Positions 2,445 through 58,644 of a stretch of DNA of 64,000 nt are shown here, piece after piece (the stretch's first letter is position 1; every line of letters starts with the position of its first letter). The position numbers and the translations under genes were made by a program. The notes under the pieces were generated by a model. The model was not told the origin of the DNA and did no database searches. It was given only the letters and a program-made list of their open reading frames with translations. This stretch comes from Octopus vulgaris (lineage: Eukaryota), in contig OX597823.1 in assembly GCA_951406725.2 (NCBI GenBank), positions 35,588,001-35,652,000 of the forward strand, in the 5' to 3' direction.

Positions 2445-2489
<45 letters not shown>

Positions 2490-2607
2490 AATCAAGGAAC
2501 GGCCATAATAGGCCATTCACCCACTAGAAATAACAGCCAAAAGCTTTAACCGCAAAATAACATTAATTCTGTAAACCAGGAGAAAATTGAAAAACTTTTA
2601 CCCTGTA

Positions 2608-2714
2608 ATTTCTTAGACGATGCACCGTTTCATCTACCGTTTAATGGTAAACTAACCTGATTAAATTAAATCAAGCCAATCCACCATAGGCCCTTAGACT
2701 CATCAGTAAGAAAT
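2608..2714 (-). ncRNA. Type I hammerhead ribozyme, array copy 1
   Basis: Minus strand: stem I AUUUCUUA, CUGAUGA, long stem II, GAAA, stem III C-GGUGCAUC-G, GUC cleavage triplet, stem I' UAAGAAAU. Confidence 0.9.
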
Positions 2715-3092
2715 AGCCGGAACAGATATTTTTCACGAGGCATTCCTCTTGCTGCCTCGGCAATATCTGACCTAAAATTTTCAAATCGTCGCACTCGCGC
2801 CAAATTTATCGGCAGCAAATAAATATAAGCCACCGATTCCCTTACGGAACTAACCAGAAAATTCATAATTAATCAATATAGGGTGGCAAAAAAATTTTGT
2901 AGAATTCTTTTGCCACCAGCGGCCTAGTAGGAAAAAATTAAATAGTCATAAACCATTTTTACGTTCAACATCACAATCAAGGAACGGCCATAATAGGCCA
3001 TTCACCCACTAGAAATAACAGCCAAAAGCTTTAACCGCAAAATAACATTAATTCTGTAAACCAGGAGAAAATTGAAAAACTTTTACCCTGTA

Positions 3093-3199
3093 ATTTCTTA
3101 GACGATGCACCGTTTCATCTACCGTTTAATGGTAAACTAACCTGATTAAATTAAATCAAGCCAATCCACCATAGGCCCTTAGACTCATCAGTAAGAAAT
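3093..3199 (-). ncRNA. Type I hammerhead ribozyme, array copy 2
   Basis: Identical to copy 1, offset 485. Confidence 0.9.
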
Positions 3200-3577
3200 A
3201 GCCGGAACAGATATTTTTCACGAGGCATTCCTCTTGCTGCCTCGGCAATATCTGACCTAAAATTTTCAAATCGTCGCACTCGCGCCAAATTTATCGGCAG
3301 CAAATAAATATAAGCCACCGATTCCCTTACGGAACTAACCAGAAAATTCATAATTAATCAATATAGGGTGGCAAAAAAATTTTGTAGAATTCTTTTGCCA
3401 CCAGCGGCCTAGTAGGAAAAAATTAAATAGTCATAAACCATTTTTACGTTCAACATCACAATCAAGGAACGGCCATAATAGGCCATTCACCCACTAGAAA
3501 TAACAGCCAAAAGCTTTAACCGCAAAATAACATTAATTCTGTAAACCAGGAGAAAATTGAAAAACTTTTACCCTGTA

Positions 3578-3684
3578 ATTTCTTAGACGATGCACCGTTT
3601 CATCTACCGTTTAATGGTAAACTAACCTGATTAAATTAAATCAAGCCAATCCACCATAGGCCCTTAGACTCATCAGTAAGAAAT
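3578..3684 (-). ncRNA. Type I hammerhead ribozyme, array copy 3
   Basis: Identical to copy 1, offset 970. Confidence 0.9.
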
Positions 3685-4062
3685 AGCCGGAACAGATATT
3701 TTTCACGAGGCATTCCTCTTGCTGCCTCGGCAATATCTGACCTAAAATTTTCAAATCGTCGCACTCGCGCCAAATTTATCGGCAGCAAATAAATATAAGC
3801 CACCGATTCCCTTACGGAACTAACCAGAAAATTCATAATTAATCAATATAGGGTGGCAAAAAAATTTTGTAGAATTCTTTTGCCACCAGCGGCCTTGTAG
3901 GAAAAAATTAAATAGTCATAAACCATTTTTACGTTCAACATCACAATCAAGGAACGGCCATAATAGGCCATTCACCCACTAGAAATAACAGCCAAAAGCT
4001 TTAACCGCAAAATAACATTAATTCTGTAAACCAGGAGAAAATTGAAAAACTTTTACCCTGTA

Positions 4063-4169
4063 ATTTCTTAGACGATGCACCGTTTCATCTACCGTTTAAT
4101 GGTAAACTAACCTGATTAAATTAAATCAAGCCAATCCACCATAGGCCCTTAGACTCATCAGTAAGAAAT
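4063..4169 (-). ncRNA. Type I hammerhead ribozyme, array copy 4
   Basis: Identical to copy 1, offset 1455. Confidence 0.9.
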
Positions 4170-4519
4170 AGCCGGAACAGATATTTTTCACGAGGCATTC
4201 CTCTTGCTGCCTCGGCAATATCTGACCTAAAATTTTCAAATCGTCGCACTCGCGCCAAATTTATCGGCAGCAAATAAATATAAGCCACCGATTCCCTTAC
4301 GGAACTAACCAGAAAATTCATAATTAATCAATATAGGGTGGCAAAAAAATTTTGTAGAATTCTTTTGCCACCAGCGGCCTAGTAGGAAAAAATTAAATAG
4401 TCATAAACCATTTTTACGTTCAACATCACAATCAAGGAACGGCCATAATAGGCCATTCACCCACTAGAAATAACAGCCAAAAGCTTTAACCGCAAAATAA
4501 CATTAATTCTGTAAACCAG

Positions 4520-4587
<68 letters not shown>

Positions 4588-4589
<2 letters not shown>

Positions 4590-4816
4590 CTTTTACTCTT
4601 TTACTTGTTTCAGTCATTTCACTGCAGCCATGCTGGAGCACCGCCTTTAGTCGAGAAAATCGACCTCAGAACTTATTCTTTGTAAGCCTAGTACTTATTC
4701 TGTCGGTCTCTTTTGCCGAACCGCTAAGTTACGGAGACGTAAACACACACACCGGTTTTCAAGCGATGCTGGGGGTACAAACACAGATACACAAACATAT
4801 ACACACATACACATAC

Positions 4817-4856
<40 letters not shown>

Positions 4857-5007
4857 GACGGGCTTCTTTCAGTTTCCGTCTACCAAATCCACTCACAAGG
4901 CTTTGTTCGGCCCGAGGCTATAGTAGAAGACACTTTCCCAAGGTGCCACGCAGTCGGACGAAACCCAGAACCATGTGGTTGGTAAGCAAGCTACTTACCA
5001 CACAGCC
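4588..5007 (-). mobile_element. Abundant tRNA-derived SINE with internal (TA/CA)n and GTAAAAGA-type tail
   Basis: Same body as copies at 5008-5444, 21090-23004, 51352-51770, 51901-52486; CORE-like ACCTTGGG(C/A)AAGTGTCTT segment. Confidence 0.85.
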
Positions 5008-5444
5008 CTTTTACTCGTTTATTTGTTTCACTCATTTGACAGCGGCAATGCTGGAGCACCGCCTTTAGTCCAACAAATCGACCCCAGGACTTATTCTTTG
5101 TAGGCCTAATACTTATTCTATCGGTCTTTTTTGCCAAATCGCTAAATTACGGGGACGTAGACACATCAGCACCGGTTGTCATGCAATGTTGAGGAGGGGG
5201 GACAAACACAGACGCACAAACATACAAATACACACACAGACGCACAAATATACAAAGACACACACAGACACACACACATATATTTATATATGACGGGCTT
5301 CTTTCAGTTTCCGTCTACCAAATCTACTAATAAGGCCTTGGTCAGCCCGAGTCTATAGCAGAAGACACCACCACGCAGTGGGACTGAACCTGGAACCATG
5401 TGGTTGGTAAGCTACTTATCACACATCTACTTCTGCGCCTATGG
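5008..5444 (-). mobile_element. Same SINE family, full head, fused at its 5' end to a U6 fragment
   Basis: Head TAGGCGCAG(A/G)AGT..; B-box-like GGTTCAGTCCC; directly adjacent to the preceding copy. Confidence 0.85.
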
Positions 5445-5477
5445 AAAAATATGGAACGCTTCACAAATTTGCTTGTC
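5445..5477 (-). pseudogene. U6: U6 snRNA 3'-terminal fragment
   Basis: Minus strand GACAAGCAAATTTGTGAAGCGTTCCATATTTTT versus canonical U6 3' end GACACGCAAATTCGTGAAGCGTTCCATATTTTT. Confidence 0.85.
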
Positions 5478-6111
5478 GTGCTATTAAGTTAGACATGGCC
5501 TGGGCCAATAATGGCCGAAAACTATCAAAGTATCAAAGTATACCTCGTCTACATTAACTAGAATTTTTTTGGAGGTACAAGCGCCCTTACGCCTTAAATA
5601 ATTTTAGTTTTATTTATATTGATATAAGTGTTGCTTTTTTTAGAAGCAAAGCATCTTATTTTTTCCATTTGATCGATCCTATTAAATTACACAGGAACGT
5701 CATCTATTTTAAAAAATATTAAAATAATCACTTTTTTAGGGGTGAGTGTACAATATTTGAGTGTGTATGTATTATTCATGTATACATACTTGTTCACCGA
5801 TCTGTGTGTACATACACGCACACATGTACGCACACATCTATATGTGCATGTATATAAAGATATACTTGCCTTATACGGAGAAAATGTGCTTTATGTATGT
5901 GTACTTATGTGCGTTCACGTGGTTGTTTGTGTACGTGTGCATATATGGATATATATATATATATGGGTCTGTGTGCGTATGTATATACATATATATGTGT
6001 GGTTGTTTATATGTTTTCATTTACGTGAATCGGTGCACATACATGAATCTCCATGTATGTGTGCATATGTGCATAGTTATTTGTAGCTATTGTCTGTGTA
6101 TCACACACAGG

Positions 6112-8584: not shown

Positions 8585-9850
8585 TTGGGTTGGCAACAAA
8601 GTTCCCGCTGTTTTTTAAAATTAAATTTTTTTAAAAGGTTTAATAAAAAATAACAGCTAATTAATCAATAATATATTCATCCTTGTTGTTTACAACTTCC
8701 CAAAGTTCAACAAGATTTTCAATACCTCGTTGGTAGAAATCACCCGATTTCGACTCGAAAATTGATCCAACAAAGCTCTAAATTCTGCACCAGTATTGAA
8801 CGAAACTCCGCGCATAGCATTTAAAAGAGATCAAAAGAGATGGAAATCCGTTGGTGCCAAATCAAGAGAGTTCGGCGGGTGTGGCAGTACTTCTCAGTCA
8901 TGCGTTTGAATGGCTTTCTCGGTCATATTGGCGATATGAGGGCGGGCGTTGTTGTGCAGCAGAAGAACTCCATGCTGCTGAATAGGTCTTTTCTTTTGAA
9001 TAGCAGCCAATCCATCTGTTGAACATAGAGTTCCGCGTTGACTGTTCAAGCAATTCGTAATGGATAATACCTTTCCAGTCCCACCATACGCACAACATCG
9101 TTTTAAGCGGATGAAGATCTTGTTTCACGCGCGGTTTCGCTTCTTTACCGGGGCTAAGCCATTCCTTGCGCTGCTTCATATTGATGTACAGGCACCGTTT
9201 TTCGTCGCCTGTAGCGATTCGGTACAGAAATCATTGCTTGTGTCCATGGGTTGAGCGGTGACGAGCAAGCAAACTAGCGGAGATCGTGGCTCGTTGATTT
9301 TTGTTGTTGTCACTTAAAGCATGCGGAACCCATGCTCCATACTTCTGAACCTTTCCCATCGAGTGGAGATGCTTCCCTATAGCAGTGTGGGAGCATTCCA
9401 TTTTCTCTGCCAGTTCCCTTGTCGTTTGACGAGAATTTTTGTGCAAAAGATAGTTTAATCGCTGTTCACCTAACTCAACTGGACGGCCAGAACGAGGTAC
9501 GTCTTTGAGGTCAAAATTTTCATTTTTGAACTTGGCATACCAATCACGAGCGGTTCTTTCAGCTATGGTACCCACTCCATATACAGCACAAATGTCACGA
9601 GCAACTTTTTCGGCCTTTAGAACCTTGATTAAAAGCAAAAAGAAGGAAGTGTCGAAAATGCTCGTTTTTCTTAACTTCAGATTCCATTTTAATGATCTGA
9701 AAACAAACAAAAATTAACTAAAATTAACTAGAAAAAATAGATTCCAAAATGATTCAATAATAGAATTCTCAATAAACATAGATTCCACAATTTAAAAACG
9801 CAATAAATTCCAAAATTTAAAAAAACCGCGGTAACTTAGTTGCCAACCCA

Positions 9851-21026: not shown

Positions 21027-21372
21027 TGTACGTGTGTATGTATATATGTGTGCAAATATACAGACATATATATATATATAAATATTATATTCTTTTATTT
21101 GTTTCAGTCATTTGCCTATGGCTGTGCTGGAGCATCGACTTTAGTCGAACAAATCGACCACAGCACTTATTCTTTGTTAGCCTACTACTTATACTATCGG
21201 TCTCTTTTGTCGAACCGCTAACTTACGGGAACGTAAGTACATCAGCATCGGTTGTCAAGCGATGGTAGGGGGACAAACACAGACACACAAATATATAAAT
21301 ACATACATCCATATATACATACATATCTATATATATATACATATATATATATACATATACATACATATATAC

Positions 21373-21500
<128 letters not shown>

Positions 21501-21540
21501 GTATATGAAAGAATGGAGTTGAACGACTAGTTAACAAATA

Positions 21541-21637
21541 TCCTTTATTCTCGACATATGTTTCGAAGGCTGCATATTTCTAATTCCGATGGAATAAGGA
21601 GTACATTATGCAGATTTCTCATCAGGAAAATCAAGGA
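21541..21637 (-). ncRNA. Type I hammerhead ribozyme in pLTR (minus copy)
   Basis: Reverse complement of 22520-22616 with two substitutions, both outside the core. Confidence 0.8.
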
Positions 21638-22519
21638 ACTTATGTCGACATCAAAATGCACAAAAAACTTTTAGCTGACCGCTCTCAAGGAGCCCATGGC
21701 GATAATGAGTGTCTCTTTATAATGAGTGACGTCAGAGTGGCTGAATGTAGAAGGATCTAGAAGTTTCTAAAGGTTCAAGAGTTCAAACGAAGTAGGAGGA
21801 GGGAGGCATAAGAATAGTAAGGTGAGAGAGTGCAGGTCAAAAGAATGGTGGGTTTAAATGATTTCTTTTGTGAATGAGTTCCTGTCTGTGTGACTGTATA
21901 TAACTGTCTTAATGTGTGTATGTGTGTGTCTGAATGCGTGATTGTGTTTGTGGATGGGTAGATGTTAGAAAACTGACATCTGTGAGGTGAAAGGTTTATG
22001 TCTGTGTGTTCGATTATGTTTACTGTAGTGAAAGGAAAGTAGATAGCGAAAGGGAGAAAGAATCGGGCGAGGTGAGAGGCAACGCAAGGATGGATAGTAG
22101 TAATTGGGAATATAAGAAAATCTTTTTGAATATTGGGGTGAAATATAGCAAAAATATTTTTGGAAATCGAGGGGTTATCTATATTAGTCACTATTTGTAT
22201 GAGTGAAAGGTGTGTCTTTTCCAGTGTAAACACCTGTATGATCTTTCGACGATTGTGTTTATTAAAGGGCCTTTGGCGAACAAAATATGAAAAAGTTCGG
22301 AATTACAGATGCCACAAAATTTTCTGCCTTTATCAAACGGGAATTTTGTGGCATCTGTAATTCCGAACTTTTTCATATTTTGTTCGCCAAAGGCCCTTTA
22401 ATAAACACAATCGTCGAAAGATCCTACAGGTGTTAGATAAAGAGACACTCATTATCGCCATGGGCTCCTTGAGAGCGGTCAGCTAAAAGTTTTTTGTGCA
22501 TTTTGATGTCGACATAAGT

Positions 22520-22616
22520 TCCTTGATTTTCCTGATGAGAAATCTGCATAATGTACTCCTTATTCCTTCGGAATTAGAAATATGCAGCTTTCGAAACATA
22601 TGTCGAGAATAAAGGA
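22520..22616 (+). ncRNA. Type I hammerhead ribozyme in pLTR (plus copy)
   Basis: UCCUUGAUUUUC, CUGAUGA, stem II GAAAUCUGCAUA..UAUGCAGCUUUC, GAAA, palindromic ACAUAUGU, C (22604), GAGAAUAAAGGA. Confidence 0.85.
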
Positions 22617-23004
22617 TATTTGTTAACTAGTCGTTCAACTCCATTCTTTCATATACTTATAATTTTAAAATAAACATACAAATTTCCGCACGAAGACACG
22701 TAGTCTATGCCCTAGGGACGTAGCTTCAACCGTGTTCTTTCTGATGTGAATTTGCTACCCAGGTATCGGTTATCTTTCGAATTATCCTTAATAAGATAAT
22801 TCATTCAATTACTCAAATATATATATATATATATTCGGCGGTTTTCTTTCAGTTTCCATCTACCAAATCCAAGGACAAGGCTTTGGTCGACCCGAGGGTA
22901 TAGTAGAAAACACTTGCTCAAGTAGCCACGCAGTGGGACTGACCTCGGAAACCATGTGGTTGGGAAGCAAGCTTCTTACTCCACCGTCACTCCTGCGCCT
23001 ATGG

Positions 23005-23039
23005 AAAAATATGGAACGCTTCACGAATTTGCTTGTCAT
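23005..23039 (-). pseudogene. U6: U6 snRNA 3'-terminal fragment fused to SINE head
   Basis: Minus strand ATGACAAGCAAATTCGTGAAGCGTTCCATATTTTT; 34 of 35 positions match the canonical U6 3' end. Confidence 0.9.
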
Positions 23040-23117
23040 ACACCAAATATATAAGTAGATATGCAAACATATATTTATGCATTTATATGTACATACAGAT
23101 GGATAGATGTATAAATA

Positions 23118-24753: not shown

Positions 24754-26095
24754 CTACAGCAGACTGTAGATGGCACGTGGTCCAAGCCTTGGATGTATTT
24801 TGAAGGTGATGCCAACATCATTCGGGCAGTGCTGATGGAATATTTTCCACATCATACAGATAATGTAGCGTTCACGGCGTCGTTGGAGTGAATACAGTTT
24901 CAGCTTCTCTAGTCTACCCCAGTAGTCAAGGTCTGACATGCCATCTATCTTTTTTGTGATTGACCTTTGGGGAGCTTCAATTCTCATAATATTTTGTTTC
25001 GTGTAGGGAGACCACAGTGGACAGCAGTATTCAAGGTGGGGTCGGGCAAAAGTGGAGAACAGAAGGATAATAGTGTGGGAATCTCTCGACTGGAAGGTTC
25101 TGAGAATCCAGGAACACATTCTGCGGGCCATGTCAACTTTGCTGCTTATATGTGTAGCCCAGCTTATGTTGTTGTCCACTGTTACTCCCAAGTCTCTGAT
25201 GTTGTTGGACGCCATGAGAATTTCTCCAGAAGGAAGGGAGTATGGGATTTTCAGAGCGTCCTCCTTTCCAAAGTGGATCAGTTCGAATTTGTCTTCGTTT
25301 AGCAACATGTTGTTCTTTTCCGCCCATTGGACAACAGCCAGTAGGTCTGACTGAAGGCTTATTCGGTCATCCACGCCATTGATGACCTTCTGGAGCTTGG
25401 AATCATCAGCGAAGGTTCTGATGTTACTGTGTTTGATGGTGTCAGTAATATCATTTATGTAGATGATGAAGAGAAGTGGGCCCAACACAGTGCCTTGTGG
25501 GACACCACTGCTGACTTTGGCTGGGCTGGATTTGACTCCTTCGACTACAACATGTTGGGTTCTGTTAGACAGGAAGCACTTGATCCACTGCAACAGCCTT
25601 CCAGTGACACCAATATTGGACAGCTTTCTCAAAAGGATCTTATGATCAACCCTGTCAAAGGCCTTGCTGAAATCAAGGTAGATGACATCAGTGTTGGAAC
25701 CCTCTCCCAAGGCTCTCAAAATGTCATCAAAATGATGCAGTAGCTGCGTCAGGCAATCTCTTCCATTACGGAATCCATGCTGGTTGGAGTTCAGCATATT
25801 ATGACTCTCAAGGAAGTGAGTCATACGCGATCTCAGCACTCTCTCAAATACCTTAATGATATGAGAGGTGAATGAGATTGGACGGTAATTCACGGCAAGC
25901 GATTTGTTTCCTTTTTTGAAAACTGGGACAACAGACTGGGATAGGTCTTCTGGTATATATCCAGCATCCAGTGAGTTCCGCCACAGATTGGCTAGAGGGG
26001 GTGCAAGTTGATTTTGACACATCTTCAAGACACAAGCAGGGAACCTATCGGGACCTACTGCTGAATTATGCTTCATTTCCTTTATTGCTGCTATA
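24754..26095 (-). mobile_element. CR1-group LINE (Zenon-like) RT domain, open but truncated at both ends
   Basis: NYRPIS, NQHGFR, YLDFSKAFDRV, SGVPQGTVLGPLLF, FADDSK, RPHLEYCCPLWSP, LYSLQRRRERY. Confidence 0.93.
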
Positions 26096-26137
26096 TACAA
26101 ATCCGACGAACGGGAACGTGAAACTCTGAGTAATAGC
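26090..26137 (+). ncRNA. Hammerhead-like motif with U4>C change
   Basis: CCGACGA-ACGggaaCGT-GAAAC-TCTGA-GTA-ATAGC; GCTAT upstream could pair with ATAGC. Confidence 0.4.
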
Positions 26138-26168
26138 TTTTGTCATATTTCTGCTACTTTTAAATAAA

Positions 26169-36787: not shown

Positions 36788-38611
36788 TCACATCGACAAT
36801 GCTCTTCTCAATACGTGTGATGTACCAGTTAAGACAATCTTTTGCACTTCTTGCAGGGATGGTAAGCCAGGGATCATTCTCATATAATTTTCAGTTCCCT
36901 TCTTGATCATTCCTAGTGCTCCTACGATCACTGGTATTGTAACCGCCTTGAGATGCCACATTTTCTCAATTTCAATGAGTAGGTCTTTATATTTTCTGAG
37001 CTTGTCAAACTCTTTCGCTGAGATATTATGATCACAGGGGATGCTCATGTCGATCAATAAGCAAACTTTATTGTTTTGGTCTTTCACAACAATATCTGGT
37101 TTATTGGCCTTGATGGTTCGGTCTGTATGTACTGGAAAGTCCCACAGAATGGTTACATTTTCTCCTTCAGTTACAGCCTCAGGGTGGTGATTATACCACT
37201 TGTCGGCAGTTTTGATATTGTAATGCCGACTTATTAGCCAGTGGAGATATTGGCCAACTCTGTCATGTCTTAATTTATACTCCACTGGTGCTAAGACTTT
37301 ACATCCAGAGATTAGGTGGTCCACTGTTTCAATCATGTCGTTGCAGAATCGGCATTTTGGGTCTGCTCCATTTTTCATCACATTGGCCTGGTAGTTCCGG
37401 GTTAATAGGCTTTGATCTTGAGCAGCCAGGATGAAACCTTCGCTCTCTGTTTTTAGCCCTGAGCTCCGTAGCCACTGATGGGTTTGCTTCTGGTCAACAT
37501 CAGCTTGTTTGCTGCGGGCCACATATTTGCCGTGCAGAGGTTTCTCCTCCCACCTATCAGCCAATTGCTCGTGCGCTTTTTTCATTGCCATCATTTTCAC
37601 CTTCTTTGCAACAATAGTTGCCGTACTTCCCTCGGGTTGTTCAGTTTGGGTATCCTGCACGAGATCAATAGCAAATTTTTTGCTTTCCTTGATGATAGAA
37701 TGAAGCTTCTTTCGTCTCTCGTGATTTTCCACGAGCTTTAGCATCCAGTCATTCGATATTTCGAGATATTTGGCCAGCCCAATTGTGGTTGTTTTGTAAG
37801 CTAGTTCAAATTGGATCAGGCCTCGACCTCCTTGGGCTCTGGGAAGGTAAAGGCGATCTACGTCTGCCTTTGGGTGGTGCATCCTATTACAACTCAGCAG
37901 CTTGCGTATTTTTCTATCTATATTCTTTACTTCACTCATATTCCAGTTCAACACATTGTAGCTATAAGTAACAACTGGAACTGCTAAGGAATTTATAGCT
38001 AACACCTTGTTACGTGCATTTAGTTCAGATTTCAGGACTGCACGAACTCTCCTATAACATTCCTTCCTGATTTTCCCTTTCATGCTTACATGCTGAATAC
38101 CAGAGCCTTCATTTATCCCTAAATATTTGTATGTTTGTTCTTGCTCAAGCTCTCTTATGACTGTGTCAACATCTAACACGACTGAATTTGTGGTCTTCAC
38201 TTTCCCTTTCTGGAAAGTGGCCTTGGCACACTTCTCAAGTCCAAACTCCATCCCGATGTCATCGCTGAATGCTTTCACGGTGCGCAATAGGCCTTCAAGT
38301 TCATTATTGTCTTTACCATAAAGTTTTAAGTCATCCATATAAAATAGATGGCTTATTTTTTTATTGGCAATTTTATACCCATACCCTGTTCTGTTTAATT
38401 CACTTGTAAGGGGTATTAGGGCTATGCAGAATATTAAAGGTGAAAGTGAGTCACCTTGAAAAATTCCACAGTTGATGTTTATATTTTCTGAGGCAAGTAC
38501 TCCATTAGAGTGGTATAATTGGAGATTCGTATTCCACAACGACATATTGTGCTTCAGGAAGTTTGAAATCACAGGGAAATTTTGAAGATGACCAGCGATC
38601 TCAAGATCCAT
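36788..38611 (-). CDS. RLE-LINE ORF, C-terminal part: RT, CCHC zinc knuckle, restriction-like endonuclease
   Basis: GIFQGDSLSPL, YMDDLKL, CRFC..ETVDHLISGC, RHD, KPDIVV, IDMSIP..KLRKY. Confidence 0.92.
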   Translation of the reverse strand: MDLEIAGHLQNFPVISNFLKHNMSLWNTNLQLYHSNGVLASENININCGIFQGDSLSPLIFCIALIPLTSELNRTGYGYKIANKKISHLFYMDDLKLYGKDNNELEGLLRTVKAFSDDIGMEFGLEKCAKATFQKGKVKTTNSVVLDVDTVIRELEQEQTYKYLGINEGSGIQHVSMKGKIRKECYRRVRAVLKSELNARNKVLAINSLAVPVVTYSYNVLNWNMSEVKNIDRKIRKLLSCNRMHHPKADVDRLYLPRAQGGRGLIQFELAYKTTTIGLAKYLEISNDWMLKLVENHERRKKLHSIIKESKKFAIDLVQDTQTEQPEGSTATIVAKKVKMMAMKKAHEQLADRWEEKPLHGKYVARSKQADVDQKQTHQWLRSSGLKTESEGFILAAQDQSLLTRNYQANVMKNGADPKCRFCNDMIETVDHLISGCKVLAPVEYKLRHDRVGQYLHWLISRHYNIKTADKWYNHHPEAVTEGENVTILWDFPVHTDRTIKANKPDIVVKDQNNKVCLLIDMSIPCDHNISAKEFDKLRKYKDLLIEIEKMWHLKAVTIPVIVGALGMIKKGTENYMRMIPGLPSLQEVQKIVLTGTSHVLRRALSM

Positions 38612-40557
38612 GGATGCGGTATACTGTCGAAGGCCTTTTTGTAGTCAATCCATGCGGTGCTGAGATTTCTGCGCTTGTTGTGACAGTTCTCAAGGATCAT
38701 ACGATTGATTAGCAGTTGATCTTTGCATCCGTAAGAGCCTCGGCGGCACCCTTTTTGTTCAATGGGGAAAATATCGTTCTTCTCCATGAATGCATATGTT
38801 TTCTCCGCCAGGATAGATGTTAGGATTTTATACGTGGTGGATAGACAGGTTATAGGCCGATAGTTTTTTGGAAGGTTAGTTTCGTTATTCTTTGGGAGTA
38901 GGTAAGTAATGCCACTTGCTAACCATTCAGGTGTTTTCTTTGGGTCTCTCATAATTCCATTGAGCAGCTGAACTAGCTTACCGTGTGCGCATGGGAGCGA
39001 TGCGAGCCAGAAATTCGGCACCCTATCTTTACCGGGGGATTTCCACTTATGGGCCTTCGTGAGTGCCTTTCTTAGGTCTGCTATTGTGATGTCTTCCCAT
39101 GCTTGTTGTTGTAAATTTTGGTAGGATCCTTCAGTTTGTATAATCCAGTCTGCATTTATGTTGTACGTCTTCTTGTCACTCCAAATCCTTTTCCAAAAGT
39201 TTTGAACTTCTTCCATGGGAGGGGGGTCTTTAACGGTTACTTTCTCCTTCCCTATTTCTCTGTAGAATTTTTTGGCATTGGATGTGAACAGCTTATTTTG
39301 CTTGTAAAACTTGTTTCTCTTCTCAAATCTTCGTATTCTTTGGGCTTTTGCTTGGACTTTTTGTTTCAGCGTTTCTTTTATTGATATCAGTTCTTCTCTT
39401 GGTGAGGATCCAAATTTTCTCTTCATCTTTCTTCCTGTTCTGGATCTTACATCATTTCCACATATTAGTTCATTTAATATTGATATTTCCCCTCTCATAA
39501 ATTCAATCTCTTTTTCAATTTTACTTCTCCAGGTTTGATTTCTTCCCAGGTTTTGTTTTCTTTGTTTTTTCGGGGGCATACAGCTGGTTTCAATTGCCCT
39601 AGCAGAAGCGTAAATAATTTCATTTAACTCAGTAAAATCAGGTTTTAATTCTCGTATTATTTCATTTGTTACATAGTTGCCAATTTGGATTTGTTTTTTA
39701 TTTTGGTTTGTATTTGAGAGTATTACAACTTCAAGCGTATTCAGGATTTTCTGCCTCATTTCTGCCATAGACTCTCTGTGTTCTTCAGCAAATGCGAGAT
39801 CTTCAGTTACTGTTGTTTTTTCGTTTTCCTGGCTATCTTTAACAGGTACAACTTCAAACGTATTCAGGATTTTCTGCCTCATTTCTGCCATAGACTCTCT
39901 GTGTTCTTCAGCAAATGCGAGATCTTCAGTTACTGTTGTTTTTTCGTTTTCCTGGCTATCTTTAACAGGTACAATAGAATTTCTTGTATCTTCAGGCCTT
40001 TGCGTACTTTGGTCAGATGGCAATCTTTCAATTAAGCCTCGTGGCGGGCTATACTGTTCATCTGATTCTTCATTTCCTTTGTGTCTTATATTTATGTCAT
40101 TTTTCGTTGCGTGCTTGATCGCGCTTATTTCACTGTCTGTGAGTCTGTTATTTCTAAGGATATCCCTCCTCACATTTGCTAATTTGTTCTCGTCCAAATA
40201 GGGCCTACTGTCTTGATTCCGTGTTCTCCATATACTGTAAGAGTTTGCGGTGTGTCTCTCTTGAGATGGCCTACCTAATGCATAGTAATAAGCGTATATT
40301 ACTTCTTTATACTCTTCTCGGGTCCATTTGTTCCGCTTACATTTTTCTTTCTGTGGTGGTTGTGGTGGTGAACTTGGAGGGCTCGAGTTGGGGGATTTCC
40401 CGTTCAAGTGACCATCCATGTCCGTATTCGGAGAAGAGTTTGTGCCAGTTGATGACTTTTCGATCCCAGGCTGGCTCTTCCCTGGGGGACGCGCTTCCAG
40501 ATTAACCATAGGACAAGCGATTTGGTATACTAATTTAGTTTTCCTTTTAGTTTCCAA
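38569..40557 (-). CDS. RLE-LINE ORF, N-terminal part and start of RT
   Basis: WKSPGKD, NYRPITCL, EQKGCRR, WIDYKKAFDSIPH; in-frame 123-bp tandem duplication at 39724-39974. Confidence 0.9.
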   Translation of the reverse strand: METKRKTKLVYQIACPMVNLEARPPGKSQPGIEKSSTGTNSSPNTDMDGHLNGKSPNSSPPSSPPQPPQKEKCKRNKWTREEYKEVIYAYYYALGRPSQERHTANSYSIWRTRNQDSRPYLDENKLANVRRDILRNNRLTDSEISAIKHATKNDINIRHKGNEESDEQYSPPRGLIERLPSDQSTQRPEDTRNSIVPVKDSQENEKTTVTEDLAFAEEHRESMAEMRQKILNTFEVVPVKDSQENEKTTVTEDLAFAEEHRESMAEMRQKILNTLEVVILSNTNQNKKQIQIGNYVTNEIIRELKPDFTELNEIIYASARAIETSCMPPKKQRKQNLGRNQTWRSKIEKEIEFMRGEISILNELICGNDVRSRTGRKMKRKFGSSPREELISIKETLKQKVQAKAQRIRRFEKRNKFYKQNKLFTSNAKKFYREIGKEKVTVKDPPPMEEVQNFWKRIWSDKKTYNINADWIIQTEGSYQNLQQQAWEDITIADLRKALTKAHKWKSPGKDRVPNFWLASLPCAHGKLVQLLNGIMRDPKKTPEWLASGITYLLPKNNETNLPKNYRPITCLSTTYKILTSILAEKTYAFMEKNDIFPIEQKGCRRGSYGCKDQLLINRMILENCHNKRRNLSTAWIDYKKAFDSIPHPWILRSLVIFKISL

Positions 40558-40947
40558 AAATATTTTGGTGCTACGATAATGTTATCATTTTTTAGCTTTG
40601 ATTGGCTCGTGGGGAGACGGCCATCATTGCCGTTACAATTATAATCGTACCATTATAGCAGCCGTATTCTTATCATCACCATATTATGGTGTAGTTATTA
40701 TCATCACCATTACCATCACTATCATCCTTATCACCACCACCACCATCATCACTATCATCATCACCATCACCATCACCACCATCATCATCAATGATATTGT
40801 TTTATGTGTAGTCACAGCAGTATCTTATTATTGTTATTTTTGTTTTTTTAATCATTATCACCATCACAGTAGTGTCTGTCTGTCTCGTTTGCTGGCTTGG
40901 TGGTTGGCTGGCTGACTGTCTTCAACACCAGAGTGTTGAAGACAGTC

Positions 40948-43536: not shown

Positions 43537-43614
43537 AACGGCTGGCTATGAGATTCGAACTCACACCTCCGTGATTACGCGTCGCGGTGCTCTGAACCAT
43601 TAAGCTAAACCGTT
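43537..43614 (-). pseudogene. tRNA-like sequence (Thr-CGT-like loop); pseudogene or SINE head
   Basis: A-box TAGCTTAATGG, T arm GTGAG-TTCGAAT-CTCAT, loop CGCGTAA with G at position 33, duplicated AGCC before the acceptor 3' strand. Confidence 0.55.
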
Positions 43615-48169: not shown

Positions 48170-48965
48170 AAACTTCATAAATGTTTTTAAAATTTTATTT
48201 TTAATTTGTCTGACGACTTATTTGTATTGGAGTAAAACCCATTTACATTTTTTTTACACAAAAGATTTATGAGGAGGTCTCATAAGTTAAATAATTCCAT
48301 CCAGTCTGTTCCAAATAAATTCGTTGTATTATTCAACACAAAACCTTTGGTGTTTAAGGATTTTTCACGAAATGTAATGTCACTTATCATTTTGCTCTTA
48401 ACATGTAAGTTTTTCCTGGAACACCACGGGTAATTTTTGAAGTTTGTTTTAATCTAGATCTCCTGATTTAATTTTTTTTCCATGTATCGAGATATTATTG
48501 CAGTATCCAATTGTAACTTTACATTTGTGTTTACCTACACAAATTTCCTTTGAGGCTCGATCGTATTTCTTGTCAACAATAACTTGTTTACTTGATTTTT
48601 TTCTGTTGAACCGTTTTTTTAGGTTTTGTTTTACAGTGTGATTTTTTATGTCCTATCTTACCACACTTGAAGCATTTGGTATTTTTAAACGGTCATTTAC
48701 TTTTAAAATGTAGGCCACCGCACCCATAACATGGATTCGGTCTTGACATTTTTTCTCTTTTATTTTATCCGTTACCGGCCGACACGCATGAATATGTAAG
48801 CAATCATTTTCTTCAATTTTGTTAGCGTTATGTCTTAGATTTATAATCCACTGGCATTCTTCTGCTACTGCCTGTAGAGTTAAGCATTGGTCCTGTTCTA
48901 ATTTTGTTAATATCCGGGAACGTAATTCTGCATCTTTGCTTGCAGTTAGCCCTTGAACAAAAATC
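48170..48965 (-). mobile_element. Decayed Gypsy gag/protease fragment
   Basis: IFVQGLTASKDAELRSRILTKLEQD..LTLQAVAEECQ and KLQLDT protease-like motif. Confidence 0.7.
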
Positions 48966-48969
48966 TAGG

Positions 48970-50500
48970 GAACGCTATAAATATTTGGGCAGTATCATTA
49001 CTTAGATACTCAACAGCTCATGTAGATTAGACAAAAACTGAATTAGCAAAGCTAGACAGGAGAACTAGAAAAGAATTCAATACAAATGAAAGACTCCATC
49101 CAAGTATAGGAGCAGCAAGATTATACTTACCTAGAAAGGAAGCAGTTAATATCAATAGAAGACGGCGGGGAGTTAGCTAGTGTAGAGATAGACTCCTATG
49201 CAGGTAATAGTGAAGAAAGTTTATTAAGCGCTGCTAGAATCACACCAAAATATAGGGAAACCAAAACGCTTAAAGAAGTTAAAAACTAAAAAAAGGGAAA
49301 AAAGGTTATCTGACTGACAGGATAAGGCTTTGCATGGTCGATTCTCAAAGATAGTTGCAGCAAATAGTAGTGGTAAGACGTGACAATGTTTGCAGAAAGG
49401 AAAGCTGAAAAAGGGGACAGAAAGTTTGTTTGTAGTTGCATAAGATACAGCATTAAGAACTAATTGAAGAAAAGCAAAGACAGACAAAAAGCAAGTAATT
49501 TCCCAATGTAGGTTATGCAAATCAAAAGAAGAAAGCGTTACTCATATAGTAAGTGAATGTAGCCTGTTCGCACAGAAAGAATGCAAGAAAAGACCTGACG
49601 ACTTAAGGAGAGTAATCCACTGATGTAGAAAGCTAAGATTTGAACATTTAAAACCGGAAACGGGGCCTTGATCTGTGCTGCCCAAGGGCAAGCATTAAGA
49701 ACGGATTACATCAAATACAGAATAGACAACACATCAGAAAGTGATAAGTGCAGAATTTGTGGATAAAATGGTGAAACCGTATGGCATATTAATAGTCAAT
49801 GTACACCAGAAATTTCTGTCCCCTTTTTCAGCTTTCCTTTCTGCAACCGTAGCCATGTCTCACTAATACTATTTGCTGCAACTATCTTTGGGAATCTACC
49901 ATGCAACGCCTTCTACTATCAGTCAGATAATTTCTGTTCTTTTTTCTGGATTTTAACTTCGTTTGTGTTTTTCGTCTCCCATATGTTTTGTTTGACTCTA
50001 TCGGCTTTTAATAAACTTTCATCACTATTACTTACATAGGAGACTATATCTACTCGCCTTAACCCCACGCAGTCTTCTACTAATATTAACTCTCTTCTGC
50101 CTTCCTTTCCAGGTAAATATAATCTTGGTATCCCAGCACTTGGGTGGAGTCTTTCATTCATACTGAATTCCTTCTTAGTTCGTCTGTCCAGCTTCGCTAA
50201 TTCAATTTTTGTCCAATCTACAAAAGCTGTTGATTATCTAAGTAACGATACAGTCCAAATACCTATAGCCTTCACTAGCTTCGGACCATTTAGCTTCGAC
50301 TTCATTAGCTTCCTCACCCTTCTGATGTACTCCTTCTCAATTTTCGTTTTCATATCTATAGTTATTACTTTGTCTACTTATCTCTGCTCAGTTATTATAT
50401 CCATACCCATTTCTACCCAAAGTGTTTTACCATCCCTATTCTATAGCTCTATCTTTTAGGTTCTCTTTCTAGTAGCACTGCATTACTATCCTGTTTTCAT
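48970..50500. mobile_element. Two diverged RLE-LINE remnants in inverted orientation
   Basis: LHPS...RLYLP.KEG, LHGRF, CRLC/CRIC..E...HI..C on plus (48970-49810) and homologous region on minus (49810-50500). Confidence 0.75.
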
Positions 50501-51351
50501 CACTGGTCCACTTCCTCCTTCTTACTCTCCTATCTGCTAATGGAATATTAGGATAACAGCTGTGGTCAGTCTGCATTTTTACTGAAGCACTCCCGAGCAT
50601 GGGGCTTCCCCTTAAAGGTCTAGCTTCACTTTCGCTGTTACAACCAGAGTTCCTTCGGAAACTCGTCTCACATAAACTGAGCTAAATTAACTTTCGTCAC
50701 CAACATCATCACCACTATTATTTTTCGACTGCCATCTAATATTTTCAAGCAACTTTCTATTGCATTATTTGTTGCACACTTGTTCTGGTGGGGTTGTGTG
50801 TGCTGCATTTTTTTCTGAGGGAGGTATTGTATTAGTATATTTTGTTTGAGTCTTCTATTGTATTAGTTTTTGTATTGTGTGTTGCTTGTGCAGCGCAGTT
50901 TGTATTCTTTTGTCGGGTATCAGCCTTCTATGGCACATGTTGTAGACTTTGTTCCTTTTGTTGGGTATTTATTATTTTTAGTTTATTCCTGTATGTTTTT
51001 GGAGGAGTGTTGCATAGTAGTGTGTGTAAAAAATGAATAAATTATTTCATAACATTTATGGTTATCTGTCCGTAGTTCTTTGTCTTTTGGTTTACTGTTA
51101 ATCAGAAAATCTTATTCATTCTTTCATCTGCCCGCTTACAATCCGTGCTAATGGAGTATTGAAGTGGTTTAAGAGCCCTTTGGCGTCTACTTCTAGCGTG
51201 TTGGTGTAGTTAATCCACACCCTTTAATATAATTCTTTATATAATTATGAATTAGTATAAAATGTTAGCTATAAGGTTTTTATTTCACATTGCCCACTTA
51301 ATAAAATCATTAAAGTTATTTTATCCTTAATTCTATATGTAAAATATATAC

Positions 51352-51524
51352 ATAGACGCAGGAGTAGCTGTGTGATAAGAAGCTTGCTTCCCAACCATAT
51401 AGTTCCGGGTTCAGTTCGACTGCGTGGCAACTTAGATGACTTTTACTATAGCCTCGGGACGACCAAAACCTTGTGAGTAGGTTTGGTAGACGGAAACTGA
51501 AAGAAGCCCATCGTATATGTGTGT

Positions 51525-51585
<61 letters not shown>

Positions 51586-51770
51586 TGTTTGTGAGTCTGT
51601 GCTTGTACCCCCATTGCTTGACAACCGATATTTGTTTCCGTCCCCGCGATTCATCAAAACAGACCGATAGAATAAGTACTAGGCTTACAAAAAATAAGTC
51701 CTGGGGTCGATTTGTTCGACTAAAGGCAGTGCCCCAGCATGGCTGCAGTCAAATGTAAAAGACTAAAAGA
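51352..51770 (+). mobile_element. tRNA-derived SINE (same family as 4588-5444), no U6 head
   Basis: Collinear with other copies; internal (TG)n. Confidence 0.85.
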
Positions 51771-51900
51771 ATATATATAATATACATAGACATTCATATA
51801 TAAATGCCTGTATGCATACACACATATATACACTTATACATACATGCATATACATAAACATATGCCTGTATAAATTAATGTGCATATGTGTATGTGTATT

Positions 51901-52486
51901 TCTCTTTATTTTTCTACTTGTTTCAGTCATTTTGACTGCGGCCATGCTGGTGCACCGCCTTTAATCGAGCAACTCGACCCCGGGACTTATTCTTTGTAAG
52001 CCCAGTACTTATTCTATCGGTCTTTTGCCGAACCGCTAAGTGACGGGGACATAAACACACCAGCATCGGTAGTCAAGCAATGCTAGGGGGACAAACACAG
52101 ACACACAAACATACACGCACATACATATATATACATATATACAACGGGCTTCTTTCAGTTTCCGTTTACTTATTCTATTGGTCTCTTTTGCCGAACCGCT
52201 AACTTACGGGGACGTAAACACACCAGCATCGGTTGTCAAGCGATGGTAGGGGACAAACACAGACACACAAACGCGCACACACACACACACACACACATAC
52301 ACACATGCATATACATATATACGACAGGCTTCTTTCAGTTTCCGTTTACCAAATCCACTCACGAAGCTTTGGTCGGCTCGAGGCTATAGTAGAAGACACT
52401 TGCCCAAGGTGCCACGCAGTGGGACTGAACCCGGAACTATTTGGTTGGTAAGCAAGCTACTTACCACACAGCCACCCCTGCGCCTA
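51901..52486 (-). mobile_element. Same SINE family, with internal duplication
   Basis: Segment CTTATTCTAT..TTTCAGTTTCCGTTTAC occurs twice (about 52008-52169 and 52169-52349). Confidence 0.8.
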
Positions 52487-53539
52487 TATATCTATATATA
52501 TATATTTGTATTTTTATAGATAGTTATACATACTTACACAAACGCACGTACGCGCACACACACATAGATATAGCTATATAGGTGTATACATTGGGAACTA
52601 GTATCATGTATTTATGTGCAAAATACAAGCTGTTAGAAAGAGTATATTTAAATGAAACACATAATCACATAATGTTTGGCTGTTTTTTTTTTGTTTTGTT
52701 TTTGCACAGTTCTTATCTAAGTTTGAAATAATAAATACACAGACATATTATTCATGTGAGAATCGAATCAGTTATCTTTATCTCCGACATACTTATGGAA
52801 CAAACAGTTACGCAAAACAAATACTCAGAGATAAACAGATTTTACAGACAAATCATATGAGTAAATAAGAATGCATTTAAATGTTTGAATATAGACAAGA
52901 CATATTTGATAAACGAGGAATATCAATATATGACTTCTGATGAACGCTAGAGTATTGTTCTTTTTTGTTTCATTTTTACTGATTATATTGTTCATGTTTT
53001 CGAGATCATTGATTCAAGCTATTGAATACAAACGAAGTCTTCCTAATTTTCTATCTGTCATTGTTTGACAACTAACTGTACAATATTTCTTCAGAAACCG
53101 CTAACAGACTCGTGTTAAAAATGCTACCAGATGTTTCGAATAAATCTGGGGCTCCACTGTTACCTGGGAGTCAATGTTAAAAGAAAGCGGAATAAAAGAT
53201 ATGGAAGTTGAACAGAACAACTCTGATTGGGAAAGCTCACGGTAATGAGGATACAATGACTCCAGTCTCTTTCTTTTAAACGGTTACATTATGAGATCGT
53301 TTGACTTTGCGTAACATACATGTAACTAATCTGAAAGGGTATATTCTGTTGATTGAATGATTGTATACTACTGTGACGATATGAAATTGTAACGATCCCC
53401 CCGTTACTGACCTCAGTGTTAACAAAATTCCCTTATGATATCCAAGACCTACGCTTGATAGTTCGATTCCCCATACTTTATGCAACACATTTTCTGATCA
53501 TTAGCAGTAATTAATTTGATTGATTACTTATTTCTACGG

Positions 53540-57960: not shown

Positions 57961-58358
57961 TTTGACCCGAGCAAAAATATGAAAAAAAAAATAGTGTCAT
58001 AGGTGTAAAACAACATGTAGTAAACGAGTATGAAAAAAATGCACGCTGGCGAACGGGAGAGGGGGAGACGACTCGGAAAATTCACATCGGGGTGTTCCGT
58101 GTCCTCTCACAACTTCCCCGTTCCTCGGCGTAATGTTTTCTTCATAAACGTTTACTACACAGTATCTTACATCTAGTAGACTATTATTTTTTCAATTTTT
58201 GTGACAGTGGGTGGGTCCAGTAACACGACTTCGACACCCGGTCACAAAAATGAAAAGAAAAATTGTGTAATAGGTGTAAAACAACATGTAGTAAACGAAC
58301 AGGAAAAATGCGCGCTGGCGAACGCGGGGAGGGGGTAGAAAGGACTCGGAAAAATCAC
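57961..58358. repeat. Diverged direct repeat of about 125 bp (57961-58085 and 58231-58358)
   Basis: Shared ATAGGTGTAAAACAACATGTAGTAAACGA..CGCTGGCGAACG..GACTCGGAAAA. Confidence 0.75.
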
Positions 58359-58644
58359 TTGCCCAAAGTTTCATGCAGTGGGACTGAACCCGGAACCGTG
58401 TGGTTGGGAAGAATATCCATTTTCTTGAGGGAAAAAATCGGATCGTGTGAAATGTCCTGGTCCTCCCCACCCCCGTTCACCAACATGTGTCTTCAACTAT
58501 AGCCTCGAGCCGATCAATGCTTTCTGGCGGTCGAAGGTGGAATTTCAGATGAAAAATTATCTATGCTATACACGAAGATGAAAACAAAAATTTGCGCACA
58601 AACTTTTTTCGATTCTGTCTTCTGCATAATAGTATTAACAAAAA

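Follow-up and report, generated by a model that had tools for sequence, protein, structure and literature searches.

Two SINE copies headed by the 3′ end of U6 and sharing one junction in a 64-kb window of the Octopus vulgaris genome

The window (i.e., the whole 64-kb stretch of Octopus vulgaris DNA that was analyzed) is AT-rich and contains many microsatellites and retroelement remains. A 12-nt junction motif was found exactly twice in this window, both times on the minus strand (5433–5444 and 22993–23004), at a distance of 17,560 bases (17.56 kb). Alignment of the two copies (copy 1 and copy 2; Table 1) revealed the same order of parts in both, i.e., a U6-like piece followed by five T, an identical two-base linker, and the same SINE start. 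Each U6-like piece represents the last ~35 nt of U6 (in short, a 35-base end) in sense with the SINE, and the two heads were identical in 35 of 37 aligned columns. A fragment match to the Rfam U6 model was obtained for copy 2 at 23005–23041 (20.4 bits, E = 0.65 in a 30-kb scan) and for copy 1 over model columns 69–105 (17.8 bits, E = 0.03 in a 231-base scan), both below the Rfam gathering score of 44. A first-pass annotation of this DNA had reported a junction recurring 17.5 kb from copy 1, a C-to-A change common to both heads, and a nearly equal U6 start point, and all three observations were reproduced here. Both heads carry A instead of C at model column 77, where the consensus C is upper-case and thus well conserved; this base is "non-canonical" relative to the Rfam consensus alone and may be the host's own U6 base. 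The first matched model column is 71 in copy 2 and lies within 69–71 in copy 1, and the bases upstream of the match differ between the copies. The two-base linker was present in two of two headed copies and absent from both plain full-head copies. Neither a longer U6 piece nor a source locus was seen within the 64-kb window.

Table 1. Positions of the two U6-headed SINE copies, their parts, and related plain SINE copies in the window.
Feature	Positions	Strand	Basis or remark
Copy 2, whole inserted unit: 4 unassigned bases, U6 3′ piece, linker, SINE first half, short TA run	22824..23043	-	bounded by 10-nt duplication
Copy 2, U6 piece: last 35 nt, ending in five T, C-to-A at column 77	23005..23039	-	Rfam fragment match and alignment to copy 1
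Copy 2, two-base linker, same as in copy 1	23003..23004	-	alignment
Copy 2, SINE first half: tRNA-like head with decayed A and B boxes, CORE-like middle	22833..23002	-	alignment; CORE likeness by eye
Copy 2, target-site duplication, 5′ side	23044..23053	-	exact 10-nt match to 22814–22823
Copy 2, target-site duplication, 3′ side	22814..22823	-	exact 10-nt match to 23044–23053
Copy 1, U6 3′ piece: columns 69–105, same C-to-A change and private changes	5445..5481	-	Rfam alignment
Copy 1, linker, SINE first half, inner microsatellite, second half	5008..5444	-	no target-site duplication found
5′-truncated plain SINE copy, in tandem behind copy 1	4590..5004	-	
Plain full-head SINE copy, no U6; 12-nt duplication (51346–51357 / 51780–51791) overlapping the SINE 5′ end	51346..51791	+	
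Plain full-head SINE copy, no U6; inner partial duplication	51905..52489	-	

The SINE, which we take to be the common Octopus SINE, consists of a tRNA-like head and a CORE-like middle, followed by an inner microsatellite and by a second half of ~200 bases. Its first half is carried by five copies, four of which have an intact 5′ end; U6 is present on two of these four, and plain copies and further fragments without U6 are common in the window (two of the four full-head copies are headless). Box-like A and B motifs were read by eye in the plain copies, in which the Rfam tRNA model gave no match at its gathering score; the SINE middle resembles the oyster Cgi_CORE_1 line by eye. The inner microsatellite was found at 5200–5292, 22824–22835, and 51512–51595, among other positions. 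Copy 2 ends in this microsatellite and copies at 52144–52177 and 21085–21286 begin near it, so the two halves of the SINE can move or be cut separately; the second half, missing from copy 2, is present in copy 1 and in plain copies, and no LINE with this second half was identified within the window. A tRNA-like match (43544–43611, minus strand; 34.2 bits) may represent a tRNA gene or the head of another SINE.

The target-site duplication that brackets the copy 2 unit is probably real, though set in AT-rich DNA; its 10-mer occurs five times in the window, both strands included, and 2 of 124 TA runs end that way. A target-site duplication was also looked for around copy 1 and none was found, which leaves one of the two headed copies with such a duplication. 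Comparison of ~1.5 kb on each side of the two copies revealed no match downstream and one 46-nt match, located in simple repeats, upstream, so that the different flanks described previously hold except for these 46 nt. Because the flanks are unrelated and the 10-nt duplication encloses both parts, the U6 piece and the SINE of copy 2 were inserted together by retrotransposition. The same two observations rule out a segmental duplication of the pair, the case that the first-pass annotation had named as fatal to its own interpretation. Gene conversion or break repair could also have transferred the head to a neighboring SINE of the same orientation, which would account for two similar heads on dissimilar bodies, on the same strand and 17.56 kb apart, and would make the pair uninformative with regard to the genome. 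We regard such a local transfer as quite improbable, as the flanks lack homology, the head of copy 2 lies within a target-site duplication specific to that copy, and the end of the copied tract would have had to coincide with the U6 boundary by chance; as a local accident, the pair would represent an ordinary chimera of a known class. A MITE-like structure (21474–22683) with 247-base inverted arms, 96% complementary and 716 bases apart, is located 140 bases from copy 2.

The SINE bodies of copies 1 and 2 differ in 33 of 151 columns, in agreement with the diverged body reported initially, and the U6 heads differ in 2 of 37 columns, as compared to 7.6 expected from the body rates (P = 0.019). 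This contrast between head and body (Fisher's P = 0.019; 0.064 when the boundary was widened by two columns) relies on a boundary that was set after the alignment had been viewed and on U6 pieces that are noticed only when well kept. The low divergence of the heads would be consistent with sister source loci with a selected U6 part and, no less so, with the joining of fresh host U6 to old SINE templates. In its first half, copy 2 deviates from the majority of the five copies in 22 of 166 columns. None of the 151 columns presented a derived change common to both headed bodies (i.e., a state setting both apart from all plain copies), and two linked transversions (columns 35 and 45 of alignment A2) split the five copies 3 to 2, with copies 1 and 2 on opposite sides. 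The signal is mixed, as the plain copy at 51346 presents the states of copy 2 in columns 35 and 45, yet has three G-to-A changes in common with copy 1, plus a fourth column beside a gap. A tree of the five SINE first halves, from which a sixth fragment (58352–58411) was omitted as too short, presented no supported branch. Whether the headed copies form one clade in the SINE phylogeny, a check proposed in the first-pass annotation, received a divided answer from these five copies: a forced single clade was not rejected (p-AU = 0.46), but copies 1 and 2 were joined in 12% of bootstrap trees and have no derived change in common.

If a plain single master were the origin, head and body should have decayed equally and both copies should be of the same subtype; the divergence and subtype results therefore lean against such a master, without excluding it. 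The A box is located ~50 bases inside the chimera, beyond the head. Promoters of this type start transcription some 10–20 bases ahead of the A box, and a copy therefore cannot transcribe its own U6 head. The first-pass annotation had proposed a single chimeric master, which would have arisen as a one-off chimera, been transcribed from an outside promoter, and been amplified as a subfamily. One such event would account for the linker, the changed base, and the start point, and master copies with common 5′ extensions have been described for SINEU-2 (PMC4494074). However, the bodies have no derived change in common and present opposite subtype states, and transcription would have to start exactly at the fragment (as the bases upstream of the U6 match differ), ~50 bases ahead of the A box and without a promoter. 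We therefore consider amplification of a fragment-headed master unlikely. The part of the proposal that stands is that the common linker and changed base do point to a common source, and that the pair is not a segmental duplication; weakened are the argument from the start point and, by the dissimilar bodies and the head without a promoter, the single master itself.

U4/U6 pairing ends near base 72–74 and could stop the reverse transcriptase at this position. Methylation of U6 G72 was considered as the cause of such a stop and was dropped, since this mark has been found in vertebrates and not in Drosophila (PMC11014329). The shared U6 start point is weak evidence for one master; a shared start is expected without a master because nearly all of the 40 U6-L2 chimeras in platypus, as well as the U6-SINE chimera in opossum, are 5′-truncated (PMC4476161). 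The searched supplements of that study yielded no U6 start positions of vertebrate chimeras. The shared linker, on the other hand, is fairly strong evidence for one source. Untemplated additions by the R2 (non-LTR) enzyme are mostly A (PMC8857657) and the plain copies have no linker, so the same linker is unlikely to have been added twice by chance; ligation joins U6 directly to the partner RNA (PMC6789731), and separate events would thus repeat the linker only if it belongs to the SINE RNA. The shared A at column 77 is strong evidence for one source, unless the host U6 has A at this position.

Both of these provisos would apply if RtcB-type ligation or an end-to-end template jump had, independently and more than once, linked mature host U6 to the SINE RNA at its 5′ end; fixed RNA ends would then repeat the junction, the host U6 would carry the A, and the linker would represent the true 5′ end of the SINE RNA. 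The route is a known one: in platypus, opossum, and Anolis, U6 with a truncated 5′ end is found on SINEs and on L2 or RTE elements (PMC4476161), RtcB joins U6 to RNAs with a 5′-OH (PMC6789731), and mature U6 ends in five U (PMC13109388). Bodies of different subtype without a common derived change, and heads that diverged less than the bodies, are both consistent with this route, and there is a weak hint that the second linker base belongs to the SINE, in that the plain copy at 51346 has a target site that matches the SINE start together with a C at that position. The same route, however, requires a host U6 that departs from the conserved Rfam column 77 and a SINE RNA with a pyrimidine at its 5′ end. 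Chimeras are also rare elsewhere (40 in platypus and 6 with AnolisSINE2; PMC4476161), whereas two of four full-head copies are headed here, and T counts and junctions vary in human cells (PMC6789731), whereas they are identical in our two copies. Recurrent joining is a serious contender in our judgement, although we do not put it first; if true, it would mean that this genome joins U6 to SINE RNA far more often than vertebrate genomes do, and the copies would map the stops of the LINE enzyme on U6.

We tentatively favor, at somewhat less than an even chance, a source in which a SINE is located two bases behind the leaky T5 terminator of a complete U6 gene (or of each of a few sister genes). 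This source-locus reading is the preferred one, with recurrent separate joining nearly as likely; the weights given here to all readings represent judgement and were not computed, with a very small remainder left for other explanations. The promoter of a U6 gene lies upstream of the gene (PMC4494074), and could drive a transcript through the T5 into the SINE. The resulting fused U6-plus-SINE RNA would have a fixed junction and a fixed U6 variant and would be made steadily. How transcription passes the T5 terminator had been raised as a question by the first-pass annotation, and read-through may be a simple candidate answer; in human cells, T5 lets 5–26% of type 3 Pol III transcripts pass, with termination reaching 95% behind the U6 promoter and 74% behind the 7SK and H1 promoters (PMC5725217). 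We infer that a LINE enzyme would then mobilize the fused RNA via its SINE part, with copy 2 primed in the inner TA run, and that reverse transcription would stop at the paired part of U6, cutting the head near U6 base 72. The scattered copies would not transmit the head, as their own promoter would start about 35–40 bases downstream; the source-locus reading thus posits a leaky source locus rather than a self-renewing subfamily. In this way, a highly expressed RNA gene would lend the repeat its external promoter, which would offer a testable solution to how snRNA-headed SINEs are transcribed.

The proportion of headed copies supports a source locus, as two of four full-head copies are headed and the probability of at least two of four is 0.0006 if 1% of copies are headed and 0.014 if 5% are. 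Several of the comparisons above would nevertheless argue against a single source locus, namely the zero derived changes common to the bodies, their opposite states at columns 35 and 45, and the 12% bootstrap value; with a single locus as the source, the opposite subtype states would have to be attributed to gene conversion or to two transversions in parallel. The subtype difference would call for sister loci or for conversion by the numerous plain copies, and selection on the U6 part of sister loci could have produced the well-kept heads. A similar subfamily mismatch in SINEU-2 has been interpreted as repeated separate additions (PMC4494074), which also counts against a source locus.

Two copies in 64 kb correspond to a 95% range of 0.24–7.2 copies per 64 kb, before the bias of a window chosen for its pair is taken into account. 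Extrapolated to the ~2.8-Gb genome of O. vulgaris, this would amount to roughly 10,000 copies or more, but a random choice of the window would be required, and the window was selected because it contains the pair; the very large family suggested by the first-pass annotation is therefore weakened. The junction pattern matched no metagenome contig, and the SINE-body pattern matched no metagenome, prokaryote, or viral contig, as is to be expected of collections that lack animal genomes. Among the sequencing runs listed for 21800–23100, 20 of 24 contain a part of this stretch (shares of 0.34–0.49), all as contigs, from 10 studies with four organism labels and with no RNA run among them; this stretch consists mostly of an inverted-repeat element, and the listing gives no evidence on the head. 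A repeat annotation of O. vulgaris includes a SINE "U" family of 369,490 bp and a "U-L1" family of 52,753 bp, both without description (PMC13282606), and 28 SINE/U pieces are listed for Amphioctopus fangsiao (PMC9795677). These automatic "U" labels neither show nor exclude the element described here, nor do they point to copy numbers in the tens of thousands. It is possible, although we would not yet wager on it, that an octopod U6 gene with a SINE behind its leaky terminator scattered thousands of headed copies by borrowing the outside promoter of an snRNA gene, which would make the element a U6 counterpart of SINEU.

The feature is real and is of a known class, i.e., U6 chimeric retrocopies, whose structural definition it matches; its repetition is unusual. 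The closest examples are the Group IV U6 chimeric retrocopies (U6-L2, U6-Mon-1, U6-RTESINE1, and U6-AnolisSINE2; Doucet et al. 2015, PMC4476161). U6-SINE chimeras of this kind occur in opossum, platypus, and Anolis, including six with AnolisSINE2 (PMC4476161). As in this group, a 5′-cut U6 3′ end with its T run is joined in sense to a non-LTR element in both of our copies, and a short target-site duplication around both parts is found in copy 2 only. The Group IV chimeras have been reported from vertebrates, as products of separate events numbering in the tens; here, the partner is a full-length SINE head, and linker and base are identical in both copies. With regard to separate formation of our two copies, the bodies would point to separate templates and the heads to one source. 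U6/L1 chimeras formed by RtcB ligation (Moldovan et al. 2019, PMC6789731) likewise contain U6 ending in 4–8 T and joined before reverse transcription, but consist of full-length U6, variable T counts, and variably cut L1, whereas the copies described here combine a cut U6 with a whole partner at a repeated junction.

Crocodilian SINEU (Kojima 2015, PMC4494074) also presents an snRNA at the SINE 5′ end, no inner promoter for this head, and an oligo-T inside the element. In contrast to the U1 or U2 heads and established copy numbers of SINEU, we found the U6 3′ end and two copies, and whereas no headless partner was found for SINEU, headless copies are common here. The absence of an abundant headless element with the same 3′ part was Kojima's argument against a sum of chimeras (PMC4494074); in the window, the snRNA-derived head is present, as is an abundant headless element, and the two copies known here do not show a SINEU-type family. 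Transcription of snRNA-headed SINEs was stated to be an open question in the paper that named them (PMC4494074). The Octopus CORE-SINEs OR1 and OR2 (Ohshima and Okada 1994, as cited in PMC4758252 and PMC4824008) resemble the SINE described here by description only, with a tRNA-like head followed by a CORE-like stretch; a U6 head on OR1 or OR2 is not mentioned in the parts of PMC4758252 and PMC4824008 examined, and tRNA-Core SINEs reach 308,559 copies in A. fangsiao (PMC9795677). The O. vulgaris "U" and "U-L1" families (PMC13282606) are similar in their snRNA-type label, a label that names no snRNA, and may or may not equal this element; the main texts of PMC13282606 and PMC9115989 do not contain the word "snRNA". 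No description of a U6-headed SINE family was found in the literature searched, and subscription journals, Repbase, and Dfam, which lay outside this search, may contain one; the same literature presented no occurrence of three SINE motifs as literal text and no octopus U6 primer or sequence.

Several other repeats were found in the window. A tandem array of 485-base units (2485–4523; ~4.2 copies, 99.9% alike) ends directly at the SINE tandem in which copy 1 is located. Three of its units presented a weak match to the Rfam type I hammerhead on the minus strand (22 bits; gathering score 34), and the stretch at 3580–3682 contains the hammerhead core motifs and folds well (z = −4.5); the array is possibly a ribozyme-bearing retroelement repeat. 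Rfam microRNA matches in the window were rejected as simple-repeat noise. A long non-LTR element, presumably of the Dong/R4 type, is located on the minus strand at 36788–40581 between TAA-type runs, with two frames (670 and 618 aa) that both match reverse transcriptases. The Dong/R4 clade is listed as recently active in O. vulgaris (PMC13282606). Another reverse transcriptase frame (462 aa; 24754–26142, minus strand) has as the best of its 865 matches a protein of Argonauta hians with 61% identity. Broken mariner-type transposase frames with a match to the Mos1 helix-turn-helix are found at 8898–9713 on the minus strand, and two adjacent inverted copies of one repeat (~470 bases, 79% alike) are located at 48962–50281.
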